A stretch of DNA of 64,000 nucleotides, from positions 1,196,112 to 1,260,111 of the forward strand of contig MU053792.1 in NCBI GenBank assembly GCA_013239625.1, given 5' to 3'. Source of the DNA: Lama guanicoe. Taxonomy: Eukaryota. The position numbers and the translations under genes were made by a program. The notes below the pieces were generated by a model. It was not told the origin of the DNA. It worked only from the letters and a program-made list of their open reading frames with translations, and did not search any database. Below are positions 6,424 through 57,386 of this stretch, one piece after another (within the stretch, counting starts at the first letter, position 1; each line of letters begins with the position of its first letter).

Positions 6424-7800
6424 GGTGGGGAAACTGCAGCTCCTAGCACGGGGGGTGGGGTGGGCGGTGGGGCTGAGTGGGCGCTGTGCAGGGGGTGGCT
6501 GCGAGGCGCCCTGTCGCAGGGCAGATCCTGGGGGTGGAGGTGGGCGAGGACCTGATGCTTCTCTTCCCTGCCCCCGTTTGTGTTTCCTCGCAGATCGGCC
6601 CGTCCCAGGGGGAGCTGCGGCCACCCCCGCGCCGGAGGAGGGTGGGGAGGTCGTTCCCTCGCCTCCTCCGGGCGGCGGGAAGGAGGCGGGGGCAGCCAGG
6701 GCTGGGGCGGGTGGCCTGCGGTGGGAGCCCGGCCGGCCCCGCTGGGACTCTGAGGACAGGTGCCTGCCAGACCGCGGGCCAGCGGCCGCACCACAGGCTT
6801 CCTGGAGGAGGAGAAGGCGACGCGGGGGAAGATGCGCGCCAAGCAGAACACCCTCCCGCACCCCCCACCCCCGCCCTCCACGCTGGGGGCACCGGTGGCG
6901 CAGCCGGGAAGCTCCCCGCGGCTCCGGGCACCTCGGCTGCGGGGGCCAACGAGCTCAGTAACAACCTCCCGGGTGGCGCCGCCGACCCTGCCGCCCGGCC
7001 CCGGGCCGTGAACTGCGCGGTGGGCCCGGGGCCGCAGAGCAGCGCCGCCCCGGCCAGGGCAGCCGGAGGACCAGTCCCCCGCCGCCGCCGCCGCTTAGCG
7101 GGCAGCGCCGCCCCGGGCGACGAGGAGGAGCGGGACAGCGCCCCGGAGAAGGGCAAGAGCACAGGCCCCAGCGCCAGGAAAGGCGAAGGGCAGACGGAGA
7201 CGAGGAAGCTGCGGGAGGAGCGGCGCTCCGGGTCTGGTAAGCATCCCCGCTGGGCAGAGTGCTTAGAGGAACCTGAAGGTGATGAAGCTGGGCAGACACA
7301 GTGGAAACGAGAAGATGCAATTACACCCCAGAACACGGTGCAGAAGGAGGCTCTAAGCTTATTAGATCCACGTAGTTCCTACCTGTTACACTTAGAGGCA
7401 GATCTAAAAACACAACCATTACCTCTGAAGATGTCTCCAGTATAGATACCCCCGAATAGACAGAAGTGGGTTCAGCAGGTAACAACAGGATGCACATGCT
7501 TAGTGGTAAGAGAAAGGCAAGAAAACTTAAAACTTGTGAGACTAATGCAAGATAAAGAGGAAGTGATCGGAAAACTCAAAGAGGAAACTGACTTGTTAAA
7601 TAGAGACCTTGTTAAATAGATGACATAGAAGATGAACAACTAAAGCAGGAGAATAAAACTCTTTTGAAAGTTGTTGGGCAGCTAGCAAGGGAGAAGATTC
7701 ATGGCTCAGTGTGGGAAAAAAATTTAAAAACTACTGATCGAATGTTGTGGTTAATGCTAGGCCAATATTCCTCTGCAAGTATCTGTATTTATTTCTAGAA
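6424..7800 (+). pseudogene. PAWR: PAWR (Par-4) processed pseudogene
   Basis: Colinear peptides match recalled PAWR: TTGFLEEEKATRGKMRAKQN, ANELSNNLPGG, PEKGKSTGPSARKGEGQTETRKLREERRS, AECLEEPEGDEAGQTQWKREDAITPQNTVQKEALSLLDPRSSYLL, VVRERQENLKLVRLMQDKEEVIGKLKEE and EQLKQENKTLLKVVGQL. There are no introns in the CDS. ATG has become CTG at 6750, and there are frameshifts, an internal deletion and a short duplication near 7592-7620. The 3' boundary is approximate, and no poly(A) or TSD was identified. Confidence 0.93.
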
Positions 7801-10529
7801 AGTAAATTTCTAGACAGTGCTGCCCACTGTCACGGTGGTGTTCCAGGCTCAGGCAGTGCCTTTGGCTGTGAGGTGCTGTCTCCCTGGGGTGGTTTACCCT
7901 TAGGTGTGGGGCAGGAATACTGGTGTTGCCTAGCTTCCCAACCACACTTTGGATGTTGTGCAAACATTGTTAATATTCAGCCTTGAAATGTATTAGTGTA
8001 CTGATTGTCAATAAAAGAAGTATTTTAAATTTTCTACTTAATCCATTAGTAAGTAAAGGAATATTTCGATTCCTTTTTAAGATTATACCAGCTATTAAGG
8101 CTTTTAAAGATCAAGCTCTTTTAAAATGTTTCCTCTATTTCGGTTTATCAGGAACATTTCCAACAATAACCTTTTACATAATGGTACCTGGTGCAGATAC
8201 AGGGGCCTGACAATTCAGGCAAAGCAGGTCATGTGCAGTCCTCTCTCCCAGGCTTAAAATGTATGTGTGTATCACATATAGATTTTTACACTAAAGATTG
8301 AAAAATAAAGTAGGATGTGCTACAATCTGTTTCCCTTTAAAATTTATAACTAACATTGAGATTTTAAAAAGGTTACTTAGATACATGTGCACTACCTTAA
8401 AAAAACTTTGGCTGTTGTCAGTAAAGTGCGAGTATTTGTGCCCATTCAGGAATAATATTTCTTATATCTCCTGAGAATTTGTGGCATAATATATATCCAA
8501 TATCCAAAGTTCTAATGCATTTATGATGTTATTTTCAAAATATTAAGTTTATTATCTTTAAAATGAACATGACTTGCCTCCTGCATTTCTGACCTGAATT
8601 AACTTGGGAATCACTGAAGAAATCATCTCTATTTCATCTTTCTAGAATTGTTATTAATTTTACTGCACTACAATTACCTTTAGAGAAGAAGAGGAAGGCT
8701 TTAGGTGGGTATTTCCAAGGGAATTTACTAAATATAATAGATGAGCACTGTCATGCTTGTTTAAGTAGTTTAAAACATAGAAAATTAAATATCAGGGGCA
8801 GATACATGAAACAATGTATTCTTAAGGTTAAAAAACCTACTTCAGTTACATGTGGTTTATGTTTTCTGGGTTAATTTGGATTTTTATAACTAGAAATTAA
8901 AATGCAAGTTTTGAGTCCATCAATACTTTGTTGAAAACAATGCAAATCAATGTAATAGCATGTTCATATGTCCAACACCAGAAGCTAAGATAGGAAGGAA
9001 CGTGGGTTTGATAATCTGATGTCATAGACAATATTCATGTGTACATTGAGTGTCATCTTTTTTGTGGGGTTTTTGATCTTGACTCAGTGCCTAGTAAGTT
9101 CCATGCCGTGTTGGCACTTTTTAATAACTATTCTTGATGTTGTTAATAACCTGTTACAAGATTCAGGCATATATATACATATTTTTTAACCTCCCAAATA
9201 TTTTATTTATTAATTTATTTGAATACGATAAGTTTGGTATATAACATGTGAATGTAAGGTGTATAGTGTGTTATTTTGATATATGTATTTATTACAATAT
9301 AGTTGTCAGGCACATATTTGCATCTTGCAATATAAAAAAAACCAAACACATCAGCTTTTCATTGGGGGGAATGTATTAAATGAGAAGGAGCTAGCATTAA
9401 AATAACATGTTAAAGTCTGGTCACACATTGTCTCATTGTGTCTGAACCATTCCTAATACGTAACAGTAACTTGACTTCTTTTGCATTGGAACTATGCTCT
9501 CATAAATAAAGGACCCTCTCATTGATTAGGACTGTCACTTGTATGCCTTACCTGAGAACTAGTGACACTTTTTGGTGGTTGTTTCAATAGGCTGAAAACA
9601 TGGTACTAATAGGCAGCAAACAGTTTACTCATCATGTGCATGAAAAAAGGCACTTTCCCCCATGCTGTTTTCTCCAAGTTGGCTGTTTCATTCTCAGTAT
9701 AAAGACTTGAACCATCGCCCAAGAAAACCTGACCCCATATTGTTTTTTTTTATTTTTGTTTTACTGAGCTAGAGTCTCAAGTGTGTTAAAGTTGTCTCTC
9801 CATACCCCACCCAAAAAAAGTAATTACATATGAGTATGTGAGAGAAATATGGTTGAGGGGGTTATATTAAATTTTCATGCTTACTCTTTCAGTAAGTAAC
9901 TGGGTAGACAATTATAGATATGATAGAAGCTTTAAAAAAATGCTCATGGATCAGCCCTTCTGTCTAGCAGTGTGTAGTGTGTGTCAGTGCTGTCTTAAGA
10001 GTGCTGACTTAAGTACAATTAGCCAGTCTAATCTGAATACTTCATTCAAAAGTACTTTGTGTATTAACTATGCAGCCGTTGTACTTTGGGTCTGGTTAAT
10101 GGGGACTACTGAGTTTGCTGCAGCACTTACTGACTGGCGATGAAAGCTCTGATGCATGTTGGGAAATGTCTTACAGTTCACATGAGGCCTTCCGCTATTC
10201 TCTTAAACTCCTTGCTTGGTTCCCTCTTGGCCTTTATTGGGGCCAGCAATTACCCGTTCTCTTGTGTGTTTGGTTTTGTCTTTCCCCATTAGATCGTCTC
10301 TGATGACAGGGAGTGGATGCTTGTAGCTCATTCACCAACGTCTCTCCAGTTTCTCCCTGGCCTCTTTTCAATATTCAGTAAACATTGCATACGTGCATAA
10401 ATAAATTAAATATTTAATGTCCAAAAAAGGAAGGCCAAAGCAGTGCAATCTGGAGCTAAATGGGACCTAACAGACCTGAATTTGAATCTCAACTTTAGTA
10501 TTAACTAGCTTAATGCTAAGGGTCTTTTT

Positions 10530-10705
10530 GGGGGGGGGTGATGAGAACTTTTAAGATCCAATCTCTTATCAACTTTTAAATATGCAGTACGGTTTATTAA
10601 CTATAGTCACCAGGCTATACACCTCACATCCCCTAGGACTTATTTATTTTATAACTAGAAGCTCGTACCTTCTGACCACCTTCACACATTTTGGCCACCC
10701 CCGTA
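10530..10705 (-). mobile_element. L1MA-like 3' UTR fragment
   Basis: ttattaactatagtcaccagg...ggacttatttattttataact, the reverse complement of motifs in the L1 at about 830-1000. Confidence 0.75.
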
Positions 10706-12149
10706 TCACTATATCGTGAGATACTTTGATAGGCCTTGGGTGACAACTAAATTTTAGGGAACACAGATCATGTTAAAGAGGTGTATTTTTTGATAGCAAA
10801 ACTCTTGATGAATTAAAGTTCCTGAAGAAATTTTTTTTTCCTACAGCCAAAAGACCAAAATTGTCAATGAGTCACTCACAGCTTATTTCAAGAACTTTTA
10901 ACATTCCTATCACATCGGTAAGTGACATATCCCCTTCCCAATGGCCATGTGGTGGCAGACACTGGTTCTGGGTGGGGTGAACGTGGTGAGTGCCAAATGA
11001 GGTCATACTTGTTCCTTCTGGGTCACTGAGCTTCTCTGCCTCTGTCTTAGTTTTCACAACTATAAAACAAAAGAAGTCACACTTGTGTGAAGTGTTTCTG
11101 AGTGCTTCTTTAAGGACAAATTGAGATCATGGATGTGAAGGCATGTTATATTTTTAAAATATTATATGAGTAAAACATCATCTCCCAACCTTAACTAGAA
11201 AAACAAGTGAGGAAAAAATGTGAATACAATGAAGAGAACTTGAGAAAGTTCCAGCATGCTTTATTAGTGCCAAGGTTAGCCCCCATTCTCCCACAAACAA
11301 AAATGGTGGGGGAGGGGCGAATTGGAAAATGACTGTGAAAGGAGACAGCAGAAAGATTGTTTTGTAAAATCTGAAGCACACGGGCTGCATTTTCAAGCCC
11401 GATTTGTAAAAGGATGGGCAGTGCTGGTGAAACGTAGAGGGCTTAGCTCTCCTTTAGATTAGAGGCGGGAGAGATGCGAAGCGGCCCAGCACCAGCACCT
11501 GGTGAGAGAGGCTGTCACCTCTCAAATAAGAGAAAGGGGAAAGTCAGCCAGCACTGTAGTCACCTGCTCCCTAGTCTCTTCCTTCTTCCACATGCTCTCC
11601 CAATTCCATCACAAACTGTGCTTAATTGATTGTGTTGCTTTTTAGTTATAAAATTCAGCCCCTCCGAGAACCCCTCCCGTAGACAGGGATTGGGGGAGGA
11701 GGAGTGGGGGGAGGGAAGCCAGAACTTAGTCCATACCCCAGTGACTGCACACTGGAGGCACGTCGCTGTGCAACACAGCCCGGGAGCCGCTTTGTTTATC
11801 AGTGAACTTCCTACTGTGGCCCTGAGATGTAGGTCAGGCTCATTGGAAATAACCAGCCGCGGATCACATGCCGTCTTTATTATATTTCGAGACTGGGTGC
11901 TCTGCTGATTCCTGCACACTGGAGTGCGTCTGCGCTGCAGGAGGGACGCAGGTAGAGTCCCCCATCTATCTTCCTGAGGCTTTCCGGGGTGCTTTCCCAT
12001 CCCCTCAGCCCTCCCTCCTCACCACCATCTCCCCTGCCGTCTTGGCCTCCAGCCTCTCTGTTTAACCAGTGCCTATCCCTCTCTCTCCCGGCTCTGCACC
12101 GCAGAAGAAGACACAGAGGGCTCCTCTTAATAGCTGGGGAGGGCTTGGC

Positions 12150-15100
12150 CTGCAAGAAGAAAGAACTCGCGTATTCCGCTCCCCTCCCCTCTGCGGCTGC
12201 CTCCTGCCACTCAGGAGGTACGACATGTGGCGTGGTCCAATGAGGGCTCTCTCACAGGACCTACGCCAGTGGGCGATGGGCGGAGGCGGGACGCGCTCCG
12301 CTCTTATATCTCCAGTTCAGGCTGCTGGTGTGAACCAGTTTGGGAGCAAACGAAGGACGGAAGGCGGAGGCACTACGGCTCTCCGCTCTTATGTCCCAGT
12401 TCAGGCCGCTGGGGTGAGCCGGCCTGGGCGCGAACGAGGGACGGCTGGCGGAGGCGGGGCGGCTCTCTGCTCCTACGTATCCAGTTCAGGACGCTGAGGT
12501 GAGCCGGCGTTGGCGCGAACGAGGGACGGCGGGCGGAGGCGACACGTCTCTCCGCTCCTGCGTTCCTAGTTGAGGCCACTGGTGTGAGCCGGCCTGGGCG
12601 GGAACGAGGGACGGCAGGCGGAGACTGTACGGTTCTCCACTCCTGGTATCCACGTTCTGGTGAGCTGGTCTCTGCGCGCGCGGGGGAAGGCGGGCGGAGG
12701 CTGGACGGCTCTCCGCTCCTGCGTCTCCAGGCGGCTGAGGTGAGCCGGTCTGTGCGCGAGCGAGGGGCGGAGGCGGGAGGGATCTCCGCTCCTGCGTCTT
12801 CAGGCCGCTGCTGTGAGCCGACCTGGGCGCGAACGAGGGACGGCGGGCGGAGGCGGGAAGGCTCTCGGCTCCTGCGTCTCTAGTTGAGGCCGCTGGTGTG
12901 AGCCGGCCTGGGCGCGAACGAGGGACGGCGGGCGGAGACTGTACGGTTCTCCATTCCTGGTATCCACGTTCTGGTGAGCTGGTCTCTGCGCGCGCGAGGG
13001 ACGGCGGGCGGAGGTTGGACGGCTCTCCGCTCCTGCGTATCCAGGCCGCTGAGGTGAGCCGGTCTGTGCGCGAGCGAGGGACGGCGGGCGGAGGCGGCAC
13101 GGCTTTCCGCTCCTGTGTCTCCAGTTCAGGCCGCTTGAGTGAGCCGGCCTGGGCGCGAACCAGGGACGGCGGGCGGAGCCGGCACGGCTTTCCGCTCCTG
13201 CTTCTCCAACTCAGGCCGCTGGTGTGAGCCGGCCTGGCCGAGGTCGTGGTGGGGCCGGCGTGGGCGGGACGACTCCCGCTCCGGCGTCTGCATTTGGGGC
13301 CGCTGGTGTGAGTCGGCCTGGGCGCGAACGAGGGACGGCGGGTGGAGACTGGACGGCTCTCCACTCCTCCGTATCCACGTACTGGTGAGCCGGTCTGTGC
13401 GCGATCGAGGGAGGGCGGGCGGAGGCGGGACGGCTATCCGCTCCTGCGTCTCCAGTTTAGGCCGCTGGAGTGAGCCGGCCTGGGCGCGAACAAGGGACGG
13501 CGGGCGGAGGCGGCACGGCTCTCGGCTCCTGCGTCTCTAGTTGAGGCCGCTGGTGTGAGCCGGCCTGGGCGTGAACGAGGGACGGCGGGCGGAGACTGGA
13601 CGGTTCTCCACTCCTGGTATCCACGTTCTAGTGAGCTGGTCTGTGCGCGCGCGAGGGACGGCGGGCGGAGGTTGGACGGCTCTCCGCTCCTGCGTCTCCA
13701 GTTTAGGCCGCTGGAGTGAGCCGGCCTGGGCGCGAACGAGGGACGGCGGGTGGAGACTGGACGGCTCTCCACTCCTCCGTATCCACGTACTGGTGAGCCG
13801 GTCTGTGCGCGATCGAGGGAGGGCGGGCGGAGGCGGGACGGCTATCCGCTCCTGCGTCTCCAGTTTAGGCCGCTGGAGTGAGCCGGCCTGGGCGCGAACA
13901 AGGGACGGCGGGCGGAGGCGGCACGGCTCTCGGCTCCTGCGTCTCTAGTTGAGGCCGCTGGTGTGAGCCGGCCTGGGCGTGAACGAGGGACGGCGGGCGG
14001 AGACTGGACGGTTCTCCACTCCTGGTATCCACGTTCTAGTGAGCTGGTCTGTGCGCGCGCGAGGGACGGCGGGCGGAGGTTGGACGGCTCTCCGCTCCTG
14101 CGTATCCAGGCCGCTGAGGTGAGCCGGTCTGTGCGCGAGTGAGGGACGGCGGGCGGAGGCGGCACGGCTCTCCGCTCCTGCGTCTCCAGTTCAGGCCGCT
14201 GCTGTGAGCCGACCTGGGCGCGAACGAGGGACGGCGGGCGGAGCCTGCACGGCTTTCCGCTTCTGCGTCTCCATTTCAGGCCGCTGGAGTGAGCCGGCCT
14301 GGGCGCGAACCAGGGGCCGCGGGCGGGGCCGGCACGGCTTTCCGCTCCTGCTTCTCCAACTCAGGCCGCTGGTGTGAGCCGGCCTGGCCGAGGTCGTTGG
14401 GGGGGCCGGCGTGGGCGGGACGGCTCCCGCTCCGGCGTCTGCATTTGGGGCCGCTGGTGTGAGTCGGCCTGGGCGCGAACGAGGGACGGCGGGCGGAGAC
14501 TGTACGGTTCTCCACTCCTGGTATCCACGTTCTGGTGAGCTGGTCTGAGCGCGTGCGAGGGTAGGCGGGCGGAGGCTGCACGGCTCTCCGCTCCTGCGTC
14601 TCCAGGCCGCTGAGGTGATCCGTTCTGTGTGCGAGCGAGGGACGGCGGACGGAGGCGGGAGGGCTCTCCGCTCCGGCGTCTCCCGTGGAGGTCGCTGGTG
14701 TGAGGCGGCCTGGGCGCGAACCAGGGACCGCGGGCGGAAGCTGGACGGCTCTCCGCTTCTGCGAATGCAGTTGTGGCGGCTGAAGTGAGCCGGCCTGGGC
14801 TTGAACGAGGGACGGCGGGCGGAGACTGGACGGCTCTCCACTTCTCTGTATCCACGTTCTGGTGAGCCGGTCTGTGCGCGATCGAGGGATGGCGGGCGGA
14901 GGCTGGACGGCTATCCGCTCCTGCGTCTCCAGTTCAGGCCGCTGGGTGAGCCTTCGTGATCGCGTACGTGGACGTCGTTCGGTGCTGCCCGGGGGCCCTT
15001 GTCGCGCATCCCTACAGCAGTGCCAGGCGCGCTTTGCTGTCCCGTAGAGAGCGCCGGGCCCTGTCTGCGGAGGGCGCCCGAGAGGTGCTGTCTGTCGACC

Positions 15101-15330
15101 TCATTCGTTGCGTGTAAACCCCGCGCCTTGCTTTCAAAGGTCTGAGGTCTGCGCTGTGGAAGAGAAGGAATACTTGCCGCAGCTGATTTCAGCGAAAAAG
15201 CCTGGATCCATCGTTTGAGCAGCTCTGCGCCTTTTGGCTGAAGGTAGGACTGGCCCTCTGAGGTGGGCAGGCCGCTGGCCCCCTCTTAAGCGCGTCGTGG
15301 TTCGTGAAGCCACGGTGGGGAGGACCCCTG
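12150..15330 (+). promoter_or_regulatory. CpG island and candidate promoter spanning the array
   Basis: Very high CpG density, CCAAT at 12237 and a GGGCGG box in most monomers. CpG-rich unique sequence continues to about 15330, with a donor-like AAG|GTAGG at 15243. Confidence 0.6.
12278..14952. repeat. CpG-rich tandem array, about 33 monomers of 73-85 bp with higher-order structure
   Basis: Consensus is approximately gtgagccggcctgggcgcgaacgagggacggcgggcggaggcggcacggctctccgctcctgcgtctccagttcaggccgctggt. GTGAG-like anchors recur at 12414, 12499, 12584, 12660, 12740, 12813, 12898 ... 14862, 14946. Confidence 0.97.
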
Positions 15331-16399
15331 TCTCCTTGGCGTAAACTGTCCCTGAAGATGCTCCAGAGCCGAGGACAGAGCCCGATGTCTGAATGGCAGA
15401 TGCTGCCACCCTGCCCTCCACATCTGAAATTGGCAAGACCAAACCTGGTAGATGTAAGGGCAGTGGAGATGTGCCCTGTTAGGTTCACTGATGGAGGAAC
15501 CTAACAGTGACAGGGTTATTTTCACTCCGCAGAGGCAAGGGAGATCAGTTTGGAGTGAACCCTGATAAATGTAGTGTTTTAAGAGCTTCTTAGTTATAAA
15601 TCAGCATTTCTTTTCCTTTTCCTTCTTATTTTTCTGTCTCTTGTTTTTTTCTTCCTTCCTAGTGATTTTAATATCCGTTAGTTTAATTACAGTCTTTCGT
15701 ATGAAAAGTCTTGGGAGAAACCTAGATTAAAAGATGCAGGTTCATTTGTGAATAGGGAAATGGCTAAAGTGCTTATCAGTTTATTTGAAGTGTGGTGAAT
15801 GGGGGCCCTGGGAGATCTGGTTCCTGGGACCCTGGGAGATCTGGTTCCTGGGGTCGCTCTACAATTGATCAGCTGTTTGACCAAGTGTGCATTTTCTTTT
15901 GTGTACCTGTATTGTTAAAAGAAATTTCATTCCCCGGGGAACATGTCTGTTGCTTTCTTTTGAAAGGTTGTTTAAACACATACGAATAATCTCTCTTGAC
16001 ACTTGCTCTCCATTGTTTCCTCCAAGGTCCTGGTAACATTAGTCTGCACCAACTGCCTCACTTTCTCAGTTTCCGTTTCCGTGACCCTTCAGTCTGGCTT
16101 CTGTCCTCATCATTGCCCTGAAACCAGAGACTCGAGTGGGCATGTGTCCTAATGGCCAGGTCCAAGGCTGCCAAGCGCTCCACCTGGTTTTCCTCTTGTC
16201 TGTTTCTCACCAGCCCTCAGCATCCTGTCTCTCTCCTCCCCACCACAGCACACACACGCTGTCATTGTGATTCATTCAGGATCAAAGTCTGCCTGTGTCA
16301 CATCTTTTATAATATTCAGTTGGGCAGCTGTCTCTGACACCAGCAGAGGGGAGGGGCCCCACCTTGGTACGTCCAGGGGAGGTGAAAGTCCAGGCTACC

Positions 16400-17100
16400 C
16401 CAATGCGTGCCTTGACACTTCTCTTGGCAGGAGACAGGGAAGCACCTTTTTGCTGCTCCCCGTGTGGTCTTAGAGACCCCAGGAGGGGTGGGGAGGAAAG
16501 TTCCAGCAGGAGTGGCGCCTCCTCTGACACCAGCATGGCTTGGGAGAAGGATGCTTCGGTGCTGCTCCTGGGGGTGGACCTCCTGCATCTCCATGTGGCC
16601 TCCGTCATCACTGGGGTGGACGTTAAGCCCCTGTGCCCACTCAGCCCTCCTGACTGGAAAGGGTACCTCTGTGCAGCTGGGTGAGGTTGGAAGTTTGGGC
16701 TCCTCTAACCTGGCTTGACAGGGGTGAGCGAACATGAGACACTGTCTTTTGTTTTCAGTTTGGTTTTCTGTATTGTTTGGTTGGGGAAACATGCTCTTCT
16801 CTCAAAGTTGTCTGTCTTGCTAGGTGCCCTCTTTCTAGGCCTGTGGCGAGAGAGAGTAGACTTTTCTTGAGACTCCATTTTTGTCTGTTTCTATTGATGC
16901 TTCTGGGTAGCCAGCTTTTCCGGTACCCACGTTGGCATATAAGAAGCACAAGAAAAAAACAGGGAAACCACTGCCATGCCATTCCTGGGTCTCGTGGTTC
17001 CCAGCCAGCCTGCTTTCTTCTTTCCACCGTTCAAAAAGTCTTCTATGTTTATCTTATATATAGTATCCAGTCCCTCTTCTTTTGTGTGTGTTAATTTTTC
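16400..17100 (-). mobile_element. Ancient L1 5'-region fragment
   Basis: agaaaaaaacagggaaaccactgccatg...cccagccagcctgctttcttctttccacc resembles antisense old L1M 5' ends. Confidence 0.5.
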
Positions 17101-17643
17101 TTTATAAAATTTTCTTGTGAACACAGGTTAGGTCTTTTACATTAATATTTCATTAACTAATGTAAGAATGAGCATGACTAGGATAGATCCACCTGGGTAA
17201 TGGGCACAATAACTGATGACATTTCTTGGTTTCTCTTAAGTGTACAGTCTAGATTGAGGCTCTTTGTTTCCACAGTGGCTGTAGAAGAGAAGGGAGTTTT
17301 AGATGTACTTTCCAGAAACCCTTGGAAGTGACTACAGTGTCACCAGCTTTTCTTGTGCTCTTGTATGTTTGAACACATGACTTGTTCTATTTTTAAGAAA
17401 TTTAGCTTAATTGGAATTATATGTTGACACCAGTTGGTTTTTTTAAAGCTACAAACATTGTAAGACAATATATAAATAGATTGTATTATGATCCTTTTCT
17501 TACAGAAGTGGTGAATTTCAATAAAATAAGCTCACTATAAAATAATTTTTTAAAAAAATTATATAGAGTCTTGGTTAATAGCTGATCTTCCAACGAATAT
17601 TAGCAAATACCCACTCATGTTATATCACATTCCTTTTCTCAAG

Positions 17644-17945
17644 TGTGACCCGCACGACAGGCCAATAAATCGGGAGGCGAGGTGTTGGGGCAAGGAATAA
17701 TTACTTTATTCAGAAAGCTGGCAGACCAAGAGGATGGCATAGTAATGTCTTGGAGAACCATCCTCAAGTCAGAATACAGGCTCTTTTTATACTAAAAAGG
17801 GGAGGGGTGTGATTGGTTGTTGGAAACTTCTTGGTGCTTTACAAAAGGTGCAGAGCTGACAAGACTAAGCCTAGAAAGCAGGGCACAGGGTTAAAACTAA
17901 CAGAAAAGATTGAATGTGGAGTTAGATTTATTCTCCTCTGTTACA
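17644..17945 (-). mobile_element. Internally deleted solo ERV LTR (same family as 30126, 31289 and 63682)
   Basis: Shares gacaggccaataaat...ggggcaaggaataat.actttatt and aaaaggtgcag...caagactaagcctag with the other copies. Confidence 0.85.
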
Positions 17946-18689
17946 TGATGACAGTACTGATGAGGAAGGAGTGTCCAATCTGGAGTCCTCTTGGGTCTCT
18001 CCCTGGTGACTTCTGCACTCAAGGCTGCCTCTTTCTGAGCAGAGAGCCCTCTGTTGTCTCTAAAGAACACAAGGCCTCATGTGCCTTGAAATTGTTCATC
18101 AGAGGCATAACGAGAAATGGAGGGATACAGAGCCATTAGCCCCTTGAATTCACTAGGATGGATGTAAGTACCCATAGTTCATCAGCTACCCTGTCAACCT
18201 GAGGACACAGTGAAGGCCCTGGGGTAGCAGGAGTCACATCACCTTACATCTGGGTAGTAAGAACCTAATGAGAACCACTTGCCAGCAACAGCCCTAGATG
18301 TTGGATGCACAAACAGAACTCTACTGAGAAGAGCATGATGGATCCTCCAACTTCCTATAGGCAAAGGTCATGCTCCCAGTAGCTCAAAAATGTTACACCT
18401 CTTTACCATGTAATTTCCTATAATTGACAAGATTTTAAAACATGCATGGACAAAGGCCAAATCCTCATAGCAGTTGGTTAACAAGTGCTTTGAAAATTAA
18501 TTGGGAAATCTCACTGTCATCTAATACTTGATAAATTGTTACCTGTTCTGAGTAAAATCTATGGAGATTTAAAAGGAAGAAAAAAAATCAAGGGATTTCA
18601 AAATGTTAAGAAAGGATTTGGATGATTTCAAACACTAGTTTCCATGTGACCAGTGTTTCCCTGGGGGCAGGTGGAAGTTATTAAAATCT

Positions 18690-19328
18690 CTTGACTATTC
18701 CAACAGCTCCCTGGCTGGTTTCCACACTTGTCCTCCTCCTGTTTTCAATGTAGTAGCCATAGTGTAATTTTAAAAAATAAAGTCAGATTAAGTTACTTTC
18801 CTCCTCAAAACCCCATCACACTTTGGTGTCCTATCACACGATCTCAGATTCTTGCCACAGCCCGTATACGTCTACAAACAGGTAGTTCCCTTGCAAACTC
18901 ACCTGCAACATTCTTTCCTACTCACTGTGTTCCAGCCACATTTGCGGTGCCTTTAACACACCCAGAACACTCCACTCTCAGGGCATTTGCACCTGCTATT
19001 CTCTCTGCTTGGTAATCTCTTCCCCCAGATAAAGATGTGCTTACCCCCCCCTTACTTTTTAGGGTATTTACCCCAAATCAGCTTCTTAAAGAGAAAGATG
19101 CTGACCAATGGCCTTGTAAGAACACCCTGCAGTCATTCTATCCTCTGATTTTGCTTTATTTCTTTCAAAGCGCTATGACTACCTGATATTACATAATGTA
19201 TTTGCTTTGCTTAGTTGCTGTCTCCCTAAAATAGAATAAATGTTCTGTAAGCTCAAGAAATGTAGGTTTCCAGTGTAAGGAATAATGCCGTAATAGCCAC
19301 TCAACAAATATTTATTGAATAAGTGAAC
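18690..19328 (+). mobile_element. L2 3' fragment
   Basis: ctcagggcatttgcacctgct and the terminal cactcaacaaatatttattgaataagtgaa. Confidence 0.75.
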
Positions 19329-20715
19329 TTTATTTTAGACATTGTTATATATATTTATGTGATGGGATCTTGTTTGTTACTTGGCTTATAAATTTTCAGC
19401 CAGGTGTGCAGTGGGTAGACATTAAGAGCATAACACCTACACCCCATCAAATTAATTCTGAGTGTCAAAAGTGGCAAGCCCACTTGCAGACTGTTTTCTA
19501 GAATTCAAACCGTGCTGGTCTCTGTCATGAGATCAATAAAGAACTGAAAAAGTATTTTCACACACAGATTGTCCATTGAGAGAGAATCTAATTATGTCAT
19601 TTGTTAGAAAAGCATGCACCAGAGGCTGCATTTAATACTTAATGGTAGAATCCAAACCAGAGAATACTTGGGAAAGATCATTCATCTTGGACTTTAAAAT
19701 AAATCATTTAATATCTTTTAGTGGAATATTTCCTTCTTACTTACATTTTTCCTCAATTAATATAAACAAAATACATTTTTCCAACAACGTGATAGTGTAG
19801 ATAGAGCAAAGTCTTTGAAGATTTACAGATACCATATCGGGGCACCGACTCCAGCACTTATGGGTTGTATGTTTCCATTTTTAATTTCAGTCTCAGTTTT
19901 ATATCTGTCAGATGGTGGTTAACATACCCACATTGCAGTGTAGGTGGGAGGAGTTATTAAATTAATCTATAAAGGATGTCGCCTAGTACCTGGCACACGG
20001 CAGGTGCTAAACAATTTCCTTCCCCTTGGTTTTCACACCCCTCACCTTTCTCAGTGGTTAAATCAAAACCTTGTGGAGAAAGTACGGCCAGATTTACCCA
20101 GATTTTTTTCTTAAACTCTAGAATAATTACTGCATTTGTTGGAATGAAATGAGAGTTGTGTATACCTCAATAGATAGAATCCTTTGTTTTAATATTTGTA
20201 AGAAACTTGACAGGTTGACATCAATCTTTTTTTCCCTCCTCCATCCTTGCAAACACAGCACTTTCTGTGGCTTTGGAGCTGATGTTACAGAACGAGTTGA
20301 TATATTGGACACATTTCACCATAGCCAGACAAATATAATTTTGATGAACTTATCTTGGCTAGTCTGTCATCTCTGCTTACTGCTAGAACTTGAAATCCAA
20401 GCACATGCCATTCTATTGTAGGCTTCCAAGAGATTCAAGGGATTATATTTAATTACAGAGAACATAATTATCAGTGTTTTTGTTGTTGTCTTAGTCTGTT
20501 GATTTTATCAGATATCTTGGATCAATCGGTTCATCTACAAATTTGAACATATCAAAACTTGATCTTTGTTAATAAAATGAAATCTGTCTAATAAGTATGA
20601 AATCAGTTGTTTCCTTTCTTCTGCAAAACCAGTATCTGCTTATAGTGCATTAAAACTAAACTAGAATAGTTTGAATGTATATCAACAAAAAAACGCAGTA
20701 ACGATTCCTCTAGCC

Positions 20716-20766
20716 TGTGTATGTGTATATGTGTGTGTGTATGTGTGTGCATATACATACGTATAT
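20716..20766. repeat. (TG/TA)n microsatellite
   Basis: Directly visible. Confidence 0.85.
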
Positions 20767-20939
20767 TTGATTATCTGGTGACGTAAGACAAGAACAGGTA
20801 GTGAAGGGATTATTATTCTTATGCCCATTATAGAAATGAAAAAATCAAGGTTAAAAAATTCAACTAAATTATCCAAAGTTGTTACCCAGTGCAAACTCGT
20901 TCTGCACCCAGCAAAGGTGCCCTCAGGGCACAAGGGCAG

Positions 20940-22660
20940 CAGCAGTGGCTGCAAGGAGAAGAGGGCTGCCTTAGGTGAGCTGGTGGTTTTGCTTCCCCTG
21001 CCGGGTGGCCTGGCCTGTGGGTGGGCTCTGCAGTCCCAGGTCGTGAGACACACCTGTCCCACTCAGCCTGCTGGGGAGAGGGGCAGAGCGGTCAGGGTGG
21101 GGAGCTGCTGCCTCTGGGAGCTGGTCCATTTCTCCTCTCCCCCGTGGTCTCGCCTGGGGGCAGCCTTGGACTCCAGGTCAGCTTGCTCCTGGGAGACGGG
21201 CGCGGTGCAGTAAGGGCGGCTGCGGCGGTCTCTGCTCCAGGTGAGCCGATCAGTTTACTCCCCTCTTCAGCGAAGCCTGACCTGCGGGCGGCCTCTGATG
21301 CCTAATTCGCCAGGCCCGCCTCCAGGTCAGCGTGTCCCATCAAGGTAGGCCCGGTGCGGTGCGTTCAGGGTGCGGGGGTGGCGAGGCGGCGTCCGCGGCG
21401 GTAGGGGGCCTGCCGAGGTGGAGCGGGTCCATTTACTCCCATCTCTCCCGTGGCTTGGCCAGGGGAGCGCTCTATGTTGCCCCAGGTGCCATGACACACC
21501 TGTCCCTGCCTGCGTGATCCTGGGAGGCGGGCCGGGGCTTTTGGGGTGGCGGCAAGGAGAGTGGGGCTGCCCTGGCGAGCTGGTCCTATTTCTTCTGTCC
21601 TCCGTGGCGTGGCCTGTCCTGGGGACGGCGTCTGCCGCCCGTGATTCGCCTAAGTGTCCGACGCCAGGTCAGTTTTCTCCTGGGAGAAGAGCGTGGTGTA
21701 GTAAGGGCTGCGGAGGTGGGCGCCCCAGGGGAGCCGTTTGGTTTACTCCCCTGTCCCAGGAAGCCTGGCCTGGGGGCGTCCTCTGCTGCATATTTCGCCA
21801 GGGCTGTCTGCAGGTCAGCCTGTCCCAGCGAGGTGGGCTCGGTACGTTCAGGGTATGGAGTGGCTGTTAGTGTCCGCGGCGGTAGGGGACCTGCTGATTG
21901 GCAGCGGGTCCATTTGGTCCCATCTCTCCTGTGGCTTGGCCATGGGAGCCGTCTCTGTTTCCCCAGGTGCCATGACACATGTGTCACTGCCAGCCTGATC
22001 CGGGTAGTCGGGCTCGGTGCTTTTGGGGCTGTGGTGTTGGCGGCGGCAGGGCGAGTGGGGCTGCCTTGGCGAGGTGGTCCCATTTCTTCTTCTCTGCACC
22101 TTGGTGTGTCCTAAGGGCGGCCTTTCCTGCCCAAGATTCGCCTGACACTCTCCTCCTGGTCAGGTTGCTGCAGGGAGGCGGGTGAGGTGCGTTCAGTGGT
22201 CAGAGAGGGGAAGGGGCTGCCCCTGGCGAGCTGGTGGATTAGCTCCCATCTCCCTGGCAGCCTGGCCAGAGGGCGGCCTCTTCTGCCCCTCATTTGCTGG
22301 TTGCCCTTCTCCAGGTCTTACTGTGGGCAGTGGGGTGGTGGCGGGGGTATGGGAGCGTGCAGGGTGAGCTGGTGGATTAGCTCCTGTCTTCCCTGTGGCT
22401 TGGCCTGGGGGTGGCTTCTGTTGCCCCAGGTCAAAAGACAGATTCTCTGACAGCCTCACCACCAGACTCAGGGCACGTTGCCCTTAGGGGGCTGCCCCTG
22501 GCAGTCGTTCAGTTTGTTCCCATCTCCCCTGCAGCCTGGCACAGGGGCAACCTTTGCTGCCCCAAGTTCACAGGATGCCCAGTCTCCAGTTTACCTGCAT
22601 TTGGGAGGCCTGCGAGGTTTAGTCAGCCCAAGGTGTGGGCTCTCCCCAGGGGAGGGGCAG
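20940..22660. repeat. Degenerate GC/CpG-rich tandem repeat, about 4 units of 445-480 bp with internal subrepeats
   Basis: cccaggt...gacaca-like anchors at about 21036, 21481, 21962 and 22425. gggctgcc(c/t)tggcgag-like motifs at about 20962, 21564, 22058, 22214 and 22488. Confidence 0.8.
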
Positions 22661-24514
22661 AACTCTCTTGGTCTCTTTTGTCTTTATTCTTCAGCAAAGG
22701 GGTCAATGGAACCTGTTCATCACCTTGAGAAAGTGTAGCCTGTGTCGTGAAAGAGCTGCTGGACAGGGTGGTTTCTAGGTTGGTTTTCACATCAGCTGAT
22801 GCTCCAGGCAGGCAGGAAGGCTGTTACTCAGAGCTTCTTAGCCTGGACTAGGGGGATGTTCCCACCATCCTCACCGTGCTTTTTCTAAATGTGTTACTCC
22901 CCCTCTTTTTCCTAGGTGACATTTTAGGTTATTGGGTCACAGATTGCTGGCACACTCATCCCTGTTCTCAAACATCTTTTAAAGTTTGGTGAAGTGACAA
23001 GTAGTGGAAGAAGAGTTACTGATAAGGTAAGACCACTTAAATTTGCATTAAAGCCGCATTCTGTCCGTCTTTCTCAAATGATTTTTCTCTGATTCTAAAC
23101 CCACAGTCTAGTGAGTGTTGTCCTCCTGTGTAAGTCATTGATCTTCAAATCATATTTGTTGAGTGGGCGACAAGATTTGTTCATCAGGCTTATCCCTGAA
23201 AGGAGAAACTGAGGCTTTGAAGCAGAATTCCTTGTCTGATGTCACCCAGGCAGTCATAATAGGAGATAGATCTGATATAAAAGTCCCTCAGCTGCCTGAA
23301 CTGCAAAGCTTCTGGGATTACTGATCCCTGAAATGTAGGTGATTCTTGATAATAATTTGGAGGTTAGTTAACATGATCAGGTTTTTCCAGTCCTGTAAAT
23401 GGGTTCCGTGGCCTCAGCCCTGGTAGAACTTGGTCATAAGGGCCGTGTTGCAAGGAGTGGGTGGCAAGGCAGAGGTGTAAGAGCTGGAATCACTGAGATT
23501 CCACACTCGCCAAACACAGACTCTAGAGCCTAATTGTTGTCAGGTTCTGCTGTGGATTTGAGAGTGTGTTGAGACATGATTCTTGCCACTGCCTGGGTGG
23601 AAGTAACTTTTATATAAACCTGGAAAGGATGGTAATGAAAGTAGATGGGCTGTTACATTACTCAGTTTACCCAGGCTCACTCTTCCAGGCACTTGTGGGA
23701 CTAATGGAGAGTTGTGTTACTCACTCATTCACTGATTTATTACCCCTGAATTGATCTTTGTCCCACAGTTAATGAAACAAGGAATCAGGAACCTGAGTTT
23801 TGTCCCCTCTCCTATCACTGATTGTATCGATCAGTCGGGTGACCTGCGTATGCATTTGTGAAATGGTGTGGTACTTCTTGCCCTATGGGACTGCGCTGAT
23901 CAGTTTTGAGAATCAGGTGAGATACGTGAATAGGACAGTGCTTTGACAAACATGAGACCTCTTTATATTGTCACCTGGGAACTTCTCTCTCCATAGTTAG
24001 CTCTGTATTATTTTTGTTGTTGTATTTTATCCAGTGTTACTAAAAGTTTTACTTTAAAGGGATCCAAATTAGCTCTGTTCACTTGTTTCCAGATCTGAAA
24101 GCTTCAGTTTTAAGAGTATCTGTTTGATTTTTCTTAAAAATACATTCTAGTATATATCTCATGTGAAAATCTTTATCCTGTTAGCTATTTCCCCATCATT
24201 TTGTTATTTTCTTGAATGTATTAAAAGTAACTATTTTATAGCCTTTATTGTTAACTCTGATGCCTACATCACCTGTGGGTTTGGATCTATTGTCTAGTGT
24301 TTCTTATTCTCATAGTGTCAGTCATGTAGTCTTGACATGTTGCATGTCTAGAAATTCTTTATTACATGGCAGACATTGTGAGTGAAAAATCCATATGTTG
24401 TCTTCTGTGAGAGGTTTTCTACCTTCCTGTTAGGCAGATAGGGTGAGGGACTGATCATCTCAATCCAGTCAGGCGCTGAGGTGGGTCAGGACTGAGGTGC
24501 CTTTTTTCTTCAAA

Positions 24515-40713: not shown

Positions 40714-40843
40714 CTGCCCCTGAGAGGTTGCGTTTGGCCTCTGTCATCTGTCAACTATCCTGCTGGGACTGGTGGCCAAGCTGGAGCTCGGAGGTTACAG
40801 GGCAGCTCACTTCCTGCTGAGTTAGCCAACAGACATCGCCCAG
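40714..40843 (+). pseudogene. TRAPPC9: TRAPPC9 exon 4 remnant
   Basis: Flanked by cag| and |gtaagc. YPAGTGGQAGARRLQGSSLPAELANRHRP versus recalled [29 protein letters not shown], with a +1 frameshift near 40755. Confidence 0.93.
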
Positions 40844-43004: not shown

Positions 43005-43093
43005 AAGTTTTTAAATGGAGGTACTGGGGACTGAACTGAGGGCCTCATGCATGCTAAGCACGTGCTCTCCCAACTGAGGTGTAATCTCCCCCC
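43005..43093 (-). mobile_element. tRNA-derived SINE (Vic-1-like)
   Basis: ggaggtactggggactgaactgagggcctcatgcatgctaagcacgtgctct. Confidence 0.8.
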
Positions 43094-48724: not shown

Positions 48725-48819
48725 CTTATTTTTATTTATTTTTTTGGAGGTACTGGGGATTGAAGCCAGGACCTTGTGCATGCTAAGCAGCTGTTCTACC
48801 ACTGAGCTATACCCTCTCC
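48725..48819 (-). mobile_element. tRNA-derived SINE (Vic-1-like)
   Basis: ggaggtactggggattgaagccaggaccttgtgcatgctaagc...ctaccactgagctataccct. Confidence 0.85.
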
Positions 48820-49699
48820 TTGTCTGCACTTAGAAGTGGACATTGCAATACACAAAATAGCTCTTAAGCACCATCATGGGACCTAGTCTTGTATAGACAA
48901 TTGAACACGTATGCTACTTCAGTAAGAATAAATGTTGTTGGGACATATCATTCTGAATCTGTTAACGTGTTTAAAAATGATCGTAGCTAGTGATAAACAC
49001 GAGTCTTGGGTCCAGTACTTCTTAGGGTCTGTTTGGCCATCATGGGAAATTACATTCTACAGAGAAGGCTAATTGGGTCTCTTGATTTTGGATGGTTCAG
49101 CAGATGATCAAGGCTTTTAAAAGCTCCTTGATAATAATGAAGTTGACTGTTTCATATTTTAAACTAACTACCAAGTTATCTTCCAAAAGTTGGAAGTCGT
49201 TAGCTTGTGAAGTGCCCAGTAATTCAGTGTGTCTGTGTGTCTATGTCTGTGAACGTGTGTGTGTGTGTGATTTCAGGAAGGTGGAAATAAGTTCCACGTA
49301 GCCTCCTGGTACCTTTCTCCTCCAGTTCAGGGTGTAGGCATATATTTACATGAATAAATTGATATTCTTTTGTCATTTAGCGTATTGGTGGGAATAAGAG
49401 GCTCTCATACTTATTTCAGAAGTGTTGGCGAGCATGAGCTTAGAAAGTGGGAGGGGAAAGGCAGGGAGGCACTTCACACTTTGTGCAGGATGTGAGAAAC
49501 AGTAGCTTTTCTTTTCTCTTTCCTTCTAAAGCAAACTGGCACTGAATTGTAACATACTATTTACTCAGAATTGCTTTTCTGATCAGATACAAGTGCCTCA
49601 GATTTTCAAGGCAACGTGAATGATGAAATGTGTTTTAGCAGTTATCTTCAAAAGTAGTTTTATTTTTCAAGTAAATGACTGGCCTGTTCTTTCTTCCAG

Positions 49700-49726
49700 C
49701 GGTACAAGAAGTTCTCATTGATCCAG
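49700..49726 (+). pseudogene. TRAPPC9: TRAPPC9 27-nt microexon (exon 5)
   Basis: ttctttcttccag|cggtacaagaagttctcattgatccag|gtacgt encodes (A)VQEVLIDP(G) versus recalled (G)AQEVLIDP(G). Confidence 0.92.
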
Positions 49727-51779
49727 GTACGTGATCTATGTGTTTAGTTTCTTTGGGTTATTTTTTAAGTGCTTGTATCATTGTGGTTTGAATGAATGTT
49801 TAAAATTTCTGGATTTTGATGTTTAGAACATGCTGATTTATCAGAACTGTTAAAAACCTGATTGTTGTTTGGTCCTTGTTTGGTGGGGCACCCTATTGAT
49901 TTATGTTGTCTGTTAAAGAGGGAAATTCTTCCTCTAGCCTGCGGATCATTAAGTGAATGGTTTGCAGTGTGCCTTTAAAATTCTTGAATGCATTTAGCAT
50001 GCTTGTCCAGTAAATTTTGAGTTGACTCATAGTAATGACTTTGCTCTGATTCCATGGCTTTTGCTCCTCTCCACGTGAATTTGAATTCTCTGTTGCATTT
50101 CGTATACGTGTTCTTAATGGGGGAAGAAATTTTGCTTTTTTAAGAGAGGTGGGTTTTCTTATGCCCTCTGAATGCCTTCTGTAATTAATACAGCAAAAAT
50201 CTCTTATTGCAGTGCTTAATTATCTCATAATGAGCTCTGTTACTTTTTGGCTTAATCAGAAATGACAAAGAGTGATAATAAAATACAAAAACCTTCCTTC
50301 CTTTGAAGAATAGAAATCAGGTGGTCAGGCTCATGCATGCTTTGTGCCTGACACACTTACTTTCATGTCATTGTGTATCATGATTCTGAGACAGAGTTGC
50401 TTCAGGTTTGTAGATTTTTGTTTTAACATTTGTGTTGAATTCTTTCTCTAGGTTGATGTTTCCTGTTGGGTTTGTGGAAAGTGTAGAGGAAGGGAAACAA
50501 ATGCTTTGTTTTGTTTTCTGGAGGCCTGAGTTGCTGATGAGAAAAGAGTTGAGCATGAGCTGAGGAACAGAGTGACACTCCCTCTCCTCCTGGCTGAAAT
50601 TGATGAACAACGAAATCAATTAAGTGTATTGGTATTTGACCAATAGAAGTCAGAGAGCCCAGACTGGCTAGTTATGCCCAATGGAAAGTACTGAATTCAC
50701 CTGCAGGAGAATTAGGTGCTTTACCAAGTAGAAGCAGCTTAGAGCAATCAGAAAAATCAGTCCTGTGATGAGATATAAAAAGAATATAGTATCTTTTATT
50801 TCTGAAACGTTCCTACGTTAGGTTGTGTAGAGCTAAAATTAAGTTTCAAGAACCAGGAGTTAAAGAGTGTGGGTGGTTCTGTGGGATCGTTACTCAGGGA
50901 GGTGTCTAGACCCTGCTGGAGGGGTTGAAGCTGGCAGGAAAGGACCCAGAGCCAGGGTTTGTCATCCCAGGGTGTCCTCCATAATGGTTCCAGCTGAGAA
51001 GGATGCAGGCTTGATCTCTCCTACCTGAGGGAGAGCGAGGGGAGAATTGAGATCTGCTCCCCCGTGGTCCCTTCCTTCCCCAGGGCCACTCCAGTTCACC
51101 TGCAGCCTTCTGGCCTCTGCTCACAGGGCCTCTGTCCTGGGACTGACTGCAGCCTTTTCTTCCCTTGTCAACATTTCCTGTGCCTTTCAGAAGTTGGTGT
51201 CTTCTCTGCAATTCAACCCTGGCAGATGGTGATGGTGGTCAGTGTGCTGGTGGGCAGTCAGCTGGGGACTCCCAGGAGCCATGCTGATTCTCCTGAGTCT
51301 CTCATTTGGGGTTATAGAACTGCCGAGCACCAGAGGAAGCCCGTTCATGTGAGGTCAGCACAGCATCGCATCACTTTCATTTTATTTTTGAATTTTCAGT
51401 GGAGGAATTATTTGTAGCAAACTGTTCCAGATTTTCTGCCGCCTGATTTCCTTACCACTGTCTCCTTGTTGGCTCCGGTGCTTGTTTTAAGAACCAGGTT
51501 TCTTCTCTGGTCATTTCTAGCAGCTGGGCTTGCCCAATCCTTGATCTGCATTTGAAGCAATGCTTTTCTTTTTCGTGATGTCCAACTGGTTTTCCTTGTC
51601 GTTTCTGAGTATTTCGTGTACACTCGGCAACTGTTTCAAGTGAAATGCCCTTGTCCAGTTTCAGTTAACTCACATTTGCTGATCTGCTGCTTTCATGCTG
51701 AGGGCAGTTTCTTCTTCCTGTAATAAAAGTTAGCAATTAGCATTTACTATGGGAAGGTACTGGCCCGAGGTGCTTTTGT

Positions 51780-56721: not shown

Positions 56722-56905
56722 GGGATTTGTCAGTCATGTTTTGTCAGTGCTGTAGATGTCAGAAAATGCTTTCACAGTTTCTCTCCATCTGAGGCGGCAC
56801 CGTGCTCTCTTACCAAGGGATTTGTCTGTTTTGTCAGTGCTGTAGATTTCAGAAAATGCTTTCACAGTTTCTCTCCATCTGAGGCGGCACCGTGCTCTCT
56901 TACCA
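56722..56905. repeat. Tandem duplication, 90-bp period, 2 copies
   Basis: tgttttgtcagtgctgtagat[g/t]tcagaaaatgctttcacagtttctctccatctgaggcggcaccgtgctctcttacca occurs at 56737 and 56827. Confidence 0.95.
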
Positions 56906-57259
56906 GCATCAGGAGCTCAGGGCCACGGGATGGTGCGGGCTGACTGCACTGCTGTCAAGACAGCTGAGCTAGTCACTGCAGGCGTGGTGCTTTCACGTAG
57001 TGCATTTCATGTTCTTTAATAGAAAGTTTCAACCGGGAGTTAATTAACTGAGTTGATTAACATTTAATGAATATGATGCTTTGTTGAAAAGACAGTTATA
57101 GGCAGAAAATAAGCTGTGAAGACTTTAAAAACGGTTTTATTACTGAAATTTCAGTAGGGAAGATACACAGTTTATCTTATTTGTGCCTCTCTTTTAAAGT
57201 AACAAAGAAAAAGACAGAAAAAGCAGAGGATGATTTCTGTTCTTCCTCTCGGCTTGCAG

Positions 57260-57386
57260 GTGCCCCTTCATCCAGTGGCATCCATCCAGACACCAGCACT
57301 GACACTGGCCGTGCTCAGAACTAGAACTGCCTCAGCCCTGAAGACACAACTGACAAATAGAAGGGGACCATGCCCTGTGACAGCAG
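57260..57386 (+). pseudogene. TRAPPC9: TRAPPC9 exon 6 remnant
   Basis: After ttgcag| it reads GAPSSSGIHPDTSTDTGRAQN*NCLSPEDTTDK*KG versus recalled [34 protein letters not shown]. Two stops, one made by a 6-bp duplication (agaact). Weak donor gtgccc. Confidence 0.9.

Follow-up and report, generated by a model that had tools for sequence, protein, structure and literature searches.

In this study, we have examined a 64,000-nucleotide stretch of the guanaco (Lama guanicoe) genome, here called the window, and we consider it probable that independently acquired pieces of this camelid genome form a patchwork within it rather than one evolved system. The window holds two dead gene copies, one of PAWR and one of the front end of TRAPPC9, together with two repeat-built CpG islands, which is a known kind of duplication patchwork. 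What came together here would be an old PAWR retrocopy, the two repeat-built islands, which belong to a noncoding locus, and a copy of the camelid TRAPPC9 5' duplicon that diverged early. The islands would have remained unmethylated in spermatogonia, acting both as orphan promoters and as sites of default recombination. Because the islands would serve as such sites, GC-biased gene conversion could maintain them as GC-rich sequence and unequal exchange could expand the 85-bp array that one of them contains. Some noncoding + strand transcription would be likely at island 4 and might also start at islands 2 and 3, with no joint function.

Composition of the island cluster

A scan of the window detected four CpG islands within 27 kb, all of them islands by the Takai-Jones criteria and all facing the + strand: island 1 (6475-7394), island 2 (12096-15386), island 3 (21133-21807) and island 4 (32278-33093). 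Their observed/expected CpG ratios (o/e) range from 0.65 to 0.97, versus 0.39 for the whole window. CpG islands have a background density of about 1 per 100 kb, at which four islands in 27 kb give a Poisson P value of 1.8e-4, a figure to be read with the reservation that islands cluster and that the window was chosen for its island density. The first-pass annotation had assigned these islands to one retrocopy, two repeats and one pseudogene promoter, and had placed both pseudogenes on the + strand with no intact parental coding sequence; on each of these points it was correct.

Judged from its alignment, the PAWR copy (6424-7690, + strand) is an old processed pseudogene whose 5' part forms island 1. 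PAWR residues 1 to 338 align within its coding part (6750-7690), where the exons are joined and the introns absent; 231 of the 300 aligned codons are identical to those of Camelus ferus PAWR, and the reading frame is disabled by 12 frameshifts and 1 stop. The same shifted frames are carried by a C. ferus model (P0122; 99/116). A short intron-like 5' piece of the copy ends in an acceptor at 6593, and sequence resembling the PAWR 3' UTR probably extends beyond 7690. Around the copy, which is old, there was no convincing target-site duplication. A PDB sequence search with the PAWR frame returned only chance MHC matches, and a literature search yielded no published camel PAWR pseudogene.

Island 2 is built from an 85-bp tandem array (12278-14952, + strand) of 32.7 copies (x33), organized in higher-order blocks of about 400 bp and bordered by unique, promoter-like flanks. 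The repeated unit is of a GC-box plus GTGAG type, and the island contains 31 GGGCGG and 32 GTGAG motifs, although most of the donors are weak. One minus-strand frame had no protein relative among 7,835 candidates, and no exact match to the island was present in metagenome contigs. Island 3 lies inside a + strand repeat (20950-22600) of about 10 degenerate units of 130 to 180 bp, with blocks of about 490 bp that are 74% alike. It is an older, decaying repeat, along which the o/e falls from 0.67 to 0.51 to 0.18 towards the 3' end. A Logan protein (P0180) matches 21902-22236 at 58 to 66%, which places a diverged relative of island 3 elsewhere. A metagenome locus (L001) was rejected as a further relative; it does not match the window at the DNA level, and its CpG o/e is 1.38.

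The stretch from 14953 to 23100 was present in 5 of the 11 listed sequencing runs (0.59 to 0.70 of words, 2 studies), none of the five being listed as an RNA run, an observation with no bearing on expression. Pfam scans of stop-free frames gave 0/150 and 0/125 matches at E<=0.01, and a further scan gave sub-threshold matches only, in 3 of 12 frames; these scans are weak because known TRAPPC9 fragments were also missed. Searches against Rfam gave three tRNA-like matches and nothing else, which we interpret as SINEs.

The TRAPPC9 duplicate and its Camelus relatives

With its parental introns and promoter kept, the TRAPPC9 copy is, by its structure, an unprocessed duplicated pseudogene of the 5' part of the gene. 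Island 4 holds its promoter and presumed first exon (32278-33182, + strand), with a donor at 32590 and a strong downstream donor at 33182. The remnants that follow are all on the + strand and span 20 kb. The first coding exon (37097-37463, residues 72 to 195) has lost its start codon and first 71 codons and carries 3 frameshifts, with its donor intact; the next remnant (40714-40843) matches residues 257 to 287; a 27-nt micro-exon (49700-49726) has good splice sites; and the last remnant in the window (57260-57386, residues 296 to 335) has 2 stops and a decayed donor. The frame is thus disabled, while three of the remnant donors are still strong. Intron-side sequences match models from other mammals (P0059, P0066 and P0081), including a primate TRAPPC9 model beside the micro-exon (P0059 at 49623-49673). 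An exon for approximately residues 196 to 243 was not found in the window, and a PDB sequence search with the TRAPPC9 frame returned nothing.

Three RefSeq models in two Camelus species match the duplicate: LOC123615342 (P0080/P0178), LOC116662184 (P0094) and LOC116661562 (P0109/P0179); two of them are separate C. ferus loci. P0080, P0094, P0109 and P0178 match the island 4 region (32121-33482), and P0094 additionally matches 28174-28230. Like the window, these models combine the TRAPPC9 promoter, a truncated first coding exon, and intronic and upstream pieces, with 2 derived residues in common. However, they are 52 to 55/57 identical among themselves, whereas the window exon is only 44 to 45/57 identical to them and is 47/57 identical to porpoise TRAPPC9. 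Exon order, which is parental in the window, is different in two of the Camelus models, and one continues into a second promoter-like copy. On these comparisons, the window duplicate is an early-diverged relative of the multilocus Camelus models. A duplicon copy of this kind can mislead annotation and read mapping. No published TRAPPC9 duplication in camelids (camel, alpaca) was found in a literature search.

Germline methylation and possible transcription of the locus

The pattern of CpG substitution supports hypomethylation of islands 1 and 2 in the male germline. CpG decay amounted to 3/45 in the PAWR island versus 8/16 in the TRAPPC9 exon (P=0.00046), a methylated exon of similar divergence that lies 30 kb away and acts as an internal control. 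In the 85-bp array, the CpG substitution ratio was 0.96 (CI, 0.50 to 1.77), with no excess, and a fivefold excess was rejected (P=1e-8); the PAWR island has a small residual CpG excess (3/45 versus 0/94, P=0.03). Island 4 is likely to be hypomethylated as well; its o/e is 0.81, whereas its own TRAPPC9 exon has lost half of the testable CpG bases. The earlier suggestion of a germline-hypomethylated locus therefore stands, through CpG retention, at islands 1 and 2 as far as the male germline is concerned; it is likely to be right for island 4 and is right only in part for the decaying island 3. A pairwise CpG test on transposable element copies was set aside as a control, with 0 to 14 CpG per pair and ascertainment bias. 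No camelid gamete methylome was evident among the literature matches listed.

Within the PAWR island, W>S changes (13/69) exceeded S>W changes (4/100; P=0.003), also after CpG masking (8/64 versus 1/67, P=0.016); the difference from the 3' part of the same copy after masking was not significant (P=0.32). These substitution counts are small, were polarised from protein-level alignments and cover about 170 sites at one locus. Such a gain of G and C is as expected of GC-biased gene conversion, which in placentals has been described at hypomethylated regions (PMC11161765).

It was previously proposed that the region might be a lineage-specific imprinted domain, in which upstream transcription through downstream islands could set their methylation in the oocyte. 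In the form considered here, that transcription would start in an upstream island or LTR, and the downstream islands would be methylated on the maternal allele and unmethylated in sperm. We regard this as improbable. CpG-rich sequence with the substitution pattern of an unmethylated state in sperm is present at islands 1 and 2, as at maternal germline differentially methylated regions (DMRs), but it is not diagnostic: any unmethylated island would retain CpG likewise, and the pattern cannot tell ordinary islands from maternal imprints. Maternal imprinting control regions and unmethylated promoters do not differ in their rate of CpG loss (PMC2987832), so retention neither favours nor disfavours imprinting. 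A retrocopy island did become the RB1 imprint (PMC3839921); however, few copied islands are differentially methylated, with 5/104 intermediate (PMC4122923). ZFP57 motifs number 1, 5, 3 and 1 in islands 1 to 4, counts reached by 154, 61, 24 and 133 of 200 shuffles; the YY1 motif is absent, and the window has no intact gene to regulate. Tandem repeats in CpG islands, as in island 2, are common at DMRs and count in favour of imprinting. Its fullest form is decidedly improbable: the PAWR-retrocopy island and the amplified promoter would be open in the male germline as recombination hotspots, and oocyte transcription from them would methylate downstream islands, creating a new maternal imprint beside an early, unscrambled copy of a TRAPPC9 duplicon whose spread through the genomes of camelids came later. 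Should an imprint exist, the DMR would be specific to the lineage, and its origin could be dated.

The region had also been read as a piRNA precursor. We consider it very improbable that it is a small-RNA precursor, either a piRNA cluster or an oocyte source of endo-siRNA from an inverted LTR-like pair. The long inverted repeat claimed earlier is present (30125-31803); its arms (30125-30651 and 31290-31803) lie 638 nt apart and are 85% identical over 531 columns, with 69% in the outer 100 columns rising to 93 to 94% further in. It comprises two copies, in opposite orientation, of a dispersed and presumably LTR-like element, with more copies at 17649-17945 and 63714-63996. If transcribed, the two arms would form six paired stretches of at least 21 bp. 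A second, older inverted repeat has arms at 26906-27167 and 27762-28031 (76%). Self-comparison of 6424-57386 showed 9 of 10 SINE/L1 pieces to be antisense, as had been claimed, and a coding gene is absent, which would also suit such a precursor; but 7 of these 9 lie inside TRAPPC9-derived introns, one being common to a Camelus paralogue, and both pseudogenes are sense. Pachytene piRNA promoters are low in CpG and methylated (PMC9114089), a poor fit to islands that retain CpG at o/e values of 0.65 to 0.97. MYB motifs number 0, 1, 0 and 2, at or below shuffles. Neither a low-CpG methylated promoter nor, by motif counts, an A-MYB-driven one was found, and CpG-rich promoters that lack MYB enrichment argue against a pachytene piRNA cluster.

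A further alternative, possible but unlikely, is a regulated, biallelic, multipromoter long noncoding RNA (lncRNA) whose + strand transcript would begin at islands 2 and 3, include an exon at 22916-23026 and splice into the TRAPPC9 remnants, captured as the 3' portion of the RNA. This 111-nt candidate, directly 3' of island 3, has no long open reading frame and is the best orphan exon, with an acceptor of 8.6 bits and a donor of 7.2 bits on the splice matrix applied here. It alone passed a strict screen of 15400-32100, a count that 2 of 30 shuffles reached; the orphan exons claimed earlier are weaker than stated, only one being well formed. A loose screen of 22600-32100 gave 5 candidates on the + strand versus 0 on the - strand; this screen is insensitive, because it recovered only 1 of 4 known TRAPPC9 remnant exons. 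The 5-to-0 strand bias between islands 3 and 4 counts against the patchwork reading. An lncRNA would also accord with the + orientation of all the pieces, the strong remnant donors, the diverged island 3 relative elsewhere, and a Camelus paralogue that has at least 8 named isoforms and one model starting upstream of its island 4 homologue. Against it, the loose screen gave 0 + strand candidates between islands 2 and 3; retained splice sites are equally expected from inheritance; and the closest protein model to the window TRAPPC9 exon, among the best 120 of 302 listed, reaches 83%. The interval from island 1 to island 2 contains four AATAAA signals and that from island 2 to island 3 contains seven. 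Island 4 came with the duplicated TRAPPC9 block, and a single multipromoter locus was not borne out.

Comparison with known systems

The patchwork that we favour can be set against several known systems. In humans, about 75% of such copied islands carry methylation and about 15% lack it (PMC4122923). Because most copied human islands are methylated, the long escape of three or four same-strand islands from male-germline methylation would be an unusual fate; it counts against the patchwork and might reflect selection or an open domain common to the islands. Like the window, the PPP1R26P1 imprint in RB1 involves a retrocopy with a long-kept CpG island; in contrast to what the PAWR copy shows, PPP1R26P1 is intronic to an intact gene, has an island that arose from a methylated coding exon, and carries allelic methylation established by measurement (PMC3839921, PMC4122923).

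Pseudogene-rich duplicated blocks on alpaca chromosomes 11, 17 and 36 (PMC13751797) are likewise camelid, contain fragmented multicopy gene pieces among repeats and are explained by duplication followed by decay. Those blocks are multicopy and are reported to be absent from camel assemblies, whereas a single copy is seen in this window and TRAPPC9-derived models do exist in Camelus; TRAPPC9 and PAWR have 0 mentions in the main text and one text supplement of that report. The study of PRDM9-independent hotspots at hypomethylated regions (PMC11161765) does not contain the words camel and alpaca in its main text; the present case is one locus read from its substitution pattern. Like those hotspots, the PAWR island combines hypomethylation with a raised equilibrium GC content (0.82, or 0.89 with CpG masked), and on the reading favoured here the locus would be a clear local case of copied and amplified CpG islands that persist without a gene through sperm hypomethylation and GC-biased conversion.

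Origins of the four CpG islands

As the first-pass annotation had claimed, there are four CpG islands, all of which pass the Takai-Jones criteria and lie on the + strand: island 1 (6475-7394), island 2 (12096-15386), island 3 (21133-21807) and island 4 (32278-33093). CpG islands occur at about one per 100 kb; at that density, the Poisson P value for four in a window picked for its islands is 1.8e-4, and at a fourfold density it is 0.019.

Protein matches show that island 1 forms the 5' end of a PAWR copy, a processed pseudogene. The copy matched 57 proteins at E<=0.001, nearly every named one PAWR, and residues 1-338 of Camelus ferus PAWR map within 6750-7690, where 231 of 300 codons agree and the frame is broken by 12 frameshifts and 1 stop; no target-site duplication was found. 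The shifted frames are common to the C. ferus counterpart (99/116 columns; 9 mismatches in 108 aligned). The window is mammalian and, judged by the closest protein matches, those of the PAWR copy and the TRAPPC9 pieces to Camelus models, camelid; the 9 mismatches would suggest a South American camelid and not Camelus itself. A 296-codon, ATG-started frame (6555-7445, +) crosses the retrocopy, partly in the PAWR frame, and P0122, an ab initio model from C. ferus, follows it for 116 columns; long frames come easily in DNA of 72% GC. Eight of the 12 frameshifts fall within the first 168 residues (6750-7255), the stretch with G/C gain, and may stem from break repair or from slippage where the sequence is GC-rich. 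Across island 1 the T/A skew, computed with repeats left unmasked, changes from -0.08 (1-6423) to between +0.06 and +0.18 (7700-64000), which may be explained by L1 orientation.

Island 2 is an array of 32.7 copies of an 85-bp unit, with higher-order blocks. Nearly all units carry a GC box and GTGAG, and 12 of 32 GTGAG donors round to at least 3 bits. No parent was found by Pfam scan, protein relatives or metagenome contig matching. A CCAAT box and the first, most divergent unit occupy the left edge (12230-12310), which suggests that this edge was the original single promoter. Island 3, the older repeat, has about 10 degenerate units in blocks of 490 bp that are 74% alike. One unnamed Logan protein is nearer to the second block (58-66%) than to the first (37%); therefore, the block duplication is older than the split from the source of that protein.

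The promoter of a TRAPPC9 duplicate forms island 4. Remnants of this duplicate, all + strand and in parental order, lie at 37097-37463 (residues 72-195, without a start codon and with 3 frameshifts), 40714-40843, 49700-49726 and 57260-57386 (2 stops). With the best 120 of 302 proteins as queries, no remnant of residues ~196-243 was found. Since intron-side sequence resembles primate, donkey and pangolin models, the duplicate is an unprocessed copy. Three "uncharacterized" Camelus loci resemble its promoter and intronic pieces (33381, 39517-39761, 40378, 51189-51354 and 51887); one also covers 28174, upstream of the promoter, and two differ from the window in exon order. One isoform (P0178, C. 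bactrianus LOC123615342 isoform X2) joins a TRAPPC9 exon to a second promoter-like copy (matching 32334-32645), which implies that this locus holds copies in tandem. In a comparison of 57 residues, the window is identical to the Camelus loci at 44-45 and to porpoise TRAPPC9 at 47, and the Camelus loci agree among themselves at 52-55; two derived residues, one at a CpG-prone site, are common to the window and the Camelus loci. We read the duplicate as an early-diverged member of the family that these loci form. A recent 90-bp tandem duplication (56737-56905, 98-99%) lies in the last TRAPPC9-derived intron.

Germline methylation and GC-biased change

CpG decay was counted against parent proteins at amino-acid-changing positions, with codons beside indels dropped. 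CpG bases had decayed at 3/45 in the PAWR island versus 8/16 in the TRAPPC9 exon (P=0.00046), and non-CpG C/G transitions numbered 0/94 and 7/75, respectively; the 3/45 against 0/94 (P=0.03) leaves a small CpG excess in the PAWR island. In island 2, parsimony over 32 units, which are related to each other and were polarised by consensus, placed 17 changes of deamination type in the 22 CpG columns and 33 in the 41 remaining C/G columns, a ratio of 0.96 (CI 0.50-1.77) that rejects a fivefold excess. These substitution patterns argue that neither island was long methylated in the male germline. The proposed germline hypomethylation is thus supported for islands 1 and 2 there, but holds only in part for island 3, which is decaying (CpG o/e 0.67, 0.51 and 0.18 along its length); it is likely for island 4, which keeps a CpG o/e of 0.75-0.83, by a composition test only.

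Changes were polarised at residues that no fewer than 80% of 10 panel orthologues share (4, 7 and 6 ambiguous codons dropped). W>S changes exceeded S>W changes in the PAWR island (13/69 versus 4/100; equilibrium GC 0.82, P=0.003); the counts were 7/110 versus 5/88 in the PAWR 3' part and 4/89 versus 18/85 in the TRAPPC9 exon. The CpG-masked counts of the island were 8/64 versus 1/67 (P=0.016); they differed from those of the TRAPPC9 exon (P=0.024), though not significantly from those of the PAWR 3' part (P=0.32). The gain, in small counts, is consistent with gene conversion biased towards GC in a hypomethylated island, of the kind that PMC11161765 describes. We consider it fairly probable that the region is a patchwork of independent pieces, which hypomethylation and GC-biased conversion would keep.

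Exons, repeats and a proposed single transcript

One biallelic multi-promoter lncRNA would accord with the shared + orientation of the islands, with the only strong orphan exon candidate of the splice screen (22916-23026), and with the loose screen between islands 3 and 4 (five candidates on + versus none on -). However, the loose screen, which recovered one of four known TRAPPC9 remnant exons, returned no + strand candidate between islands 2 and 3, and AATAAA lies between all islands (4, 7 and 4 copies, in order). We regard such a transcript as unlikely, and the orphan + strand exons of the first-pass annotation come down to one strong candidate.

The long inverted repeat also noted there is present; it consists of an LTR-like element, dispersed elsewhere too, in two copies of opposite orientation. 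Its arms are 93-94% alike inside, 69% outside and 71-80% alike to other copies, as would be expected from conversion between arms or inverted duplication. Antisense transposons were likewise seen (9 of 10 SINE/L1 pieces, on our assumed L1 strand), but 7 lie inside TRAPPC9-derived introns, where such bias is ordinary. A second, older inverted repeat (76%) spans 26906-28031; two frames of its right arm translate to a decayed motif that we take to be zinc-finger-like, with no Pfam match in a stop-free frame scan. Self-comparison and Rfam gave four tRNA-derived SINE-like copies on the - strand (36751-36850, 39876-39970, 43008-43093 and 48735-48816), three of which score as tRNA in Rfam, so that mis-annotation is possible.

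Proposed imprinting and small RNAs, and known counterparts

ZFP57 and YY1 motifs were not enriched in the four islands. A retrocopy-born imprint has precedent (PMC3839921); however, of 104 copied islands in human introns, ~75% carried methylation, 15% lacked it and five were intermediate (PMC4122923). Keeping CpG for long is thus the rarer outcome, and islands that do so are more often plainly unmethylated than imprinted. Maternal ICRs lose CpG at a rate equal to that of unmethylated CpG-rich promoters (PMC2987832); CpG retention therefore does not decide the matter, and we hold a lineage-specific imprint to be improbable. Islands tied to retrocopies often serve as promoters (PMC4772013).

A small-RNA source appears more doubtful still. 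Pachytene piRNA promoters, as portrayed in the review PMC9114089, are low-CpG, methylated and A-MYB-driven, whereas the islands here seem the opposite in CpG and methylation pattern and have no excess of MYB motifs versus shuffles; the suggested piRNA-precursor locus thus fits poorly.

Literature searches on camelid TRAPPC9 and PAWR copies found no paper on this locus. The favored patchwork is of a kind already known, that of the pseudogene-rich duplicated blocks described in alpaca (PMC13751797).
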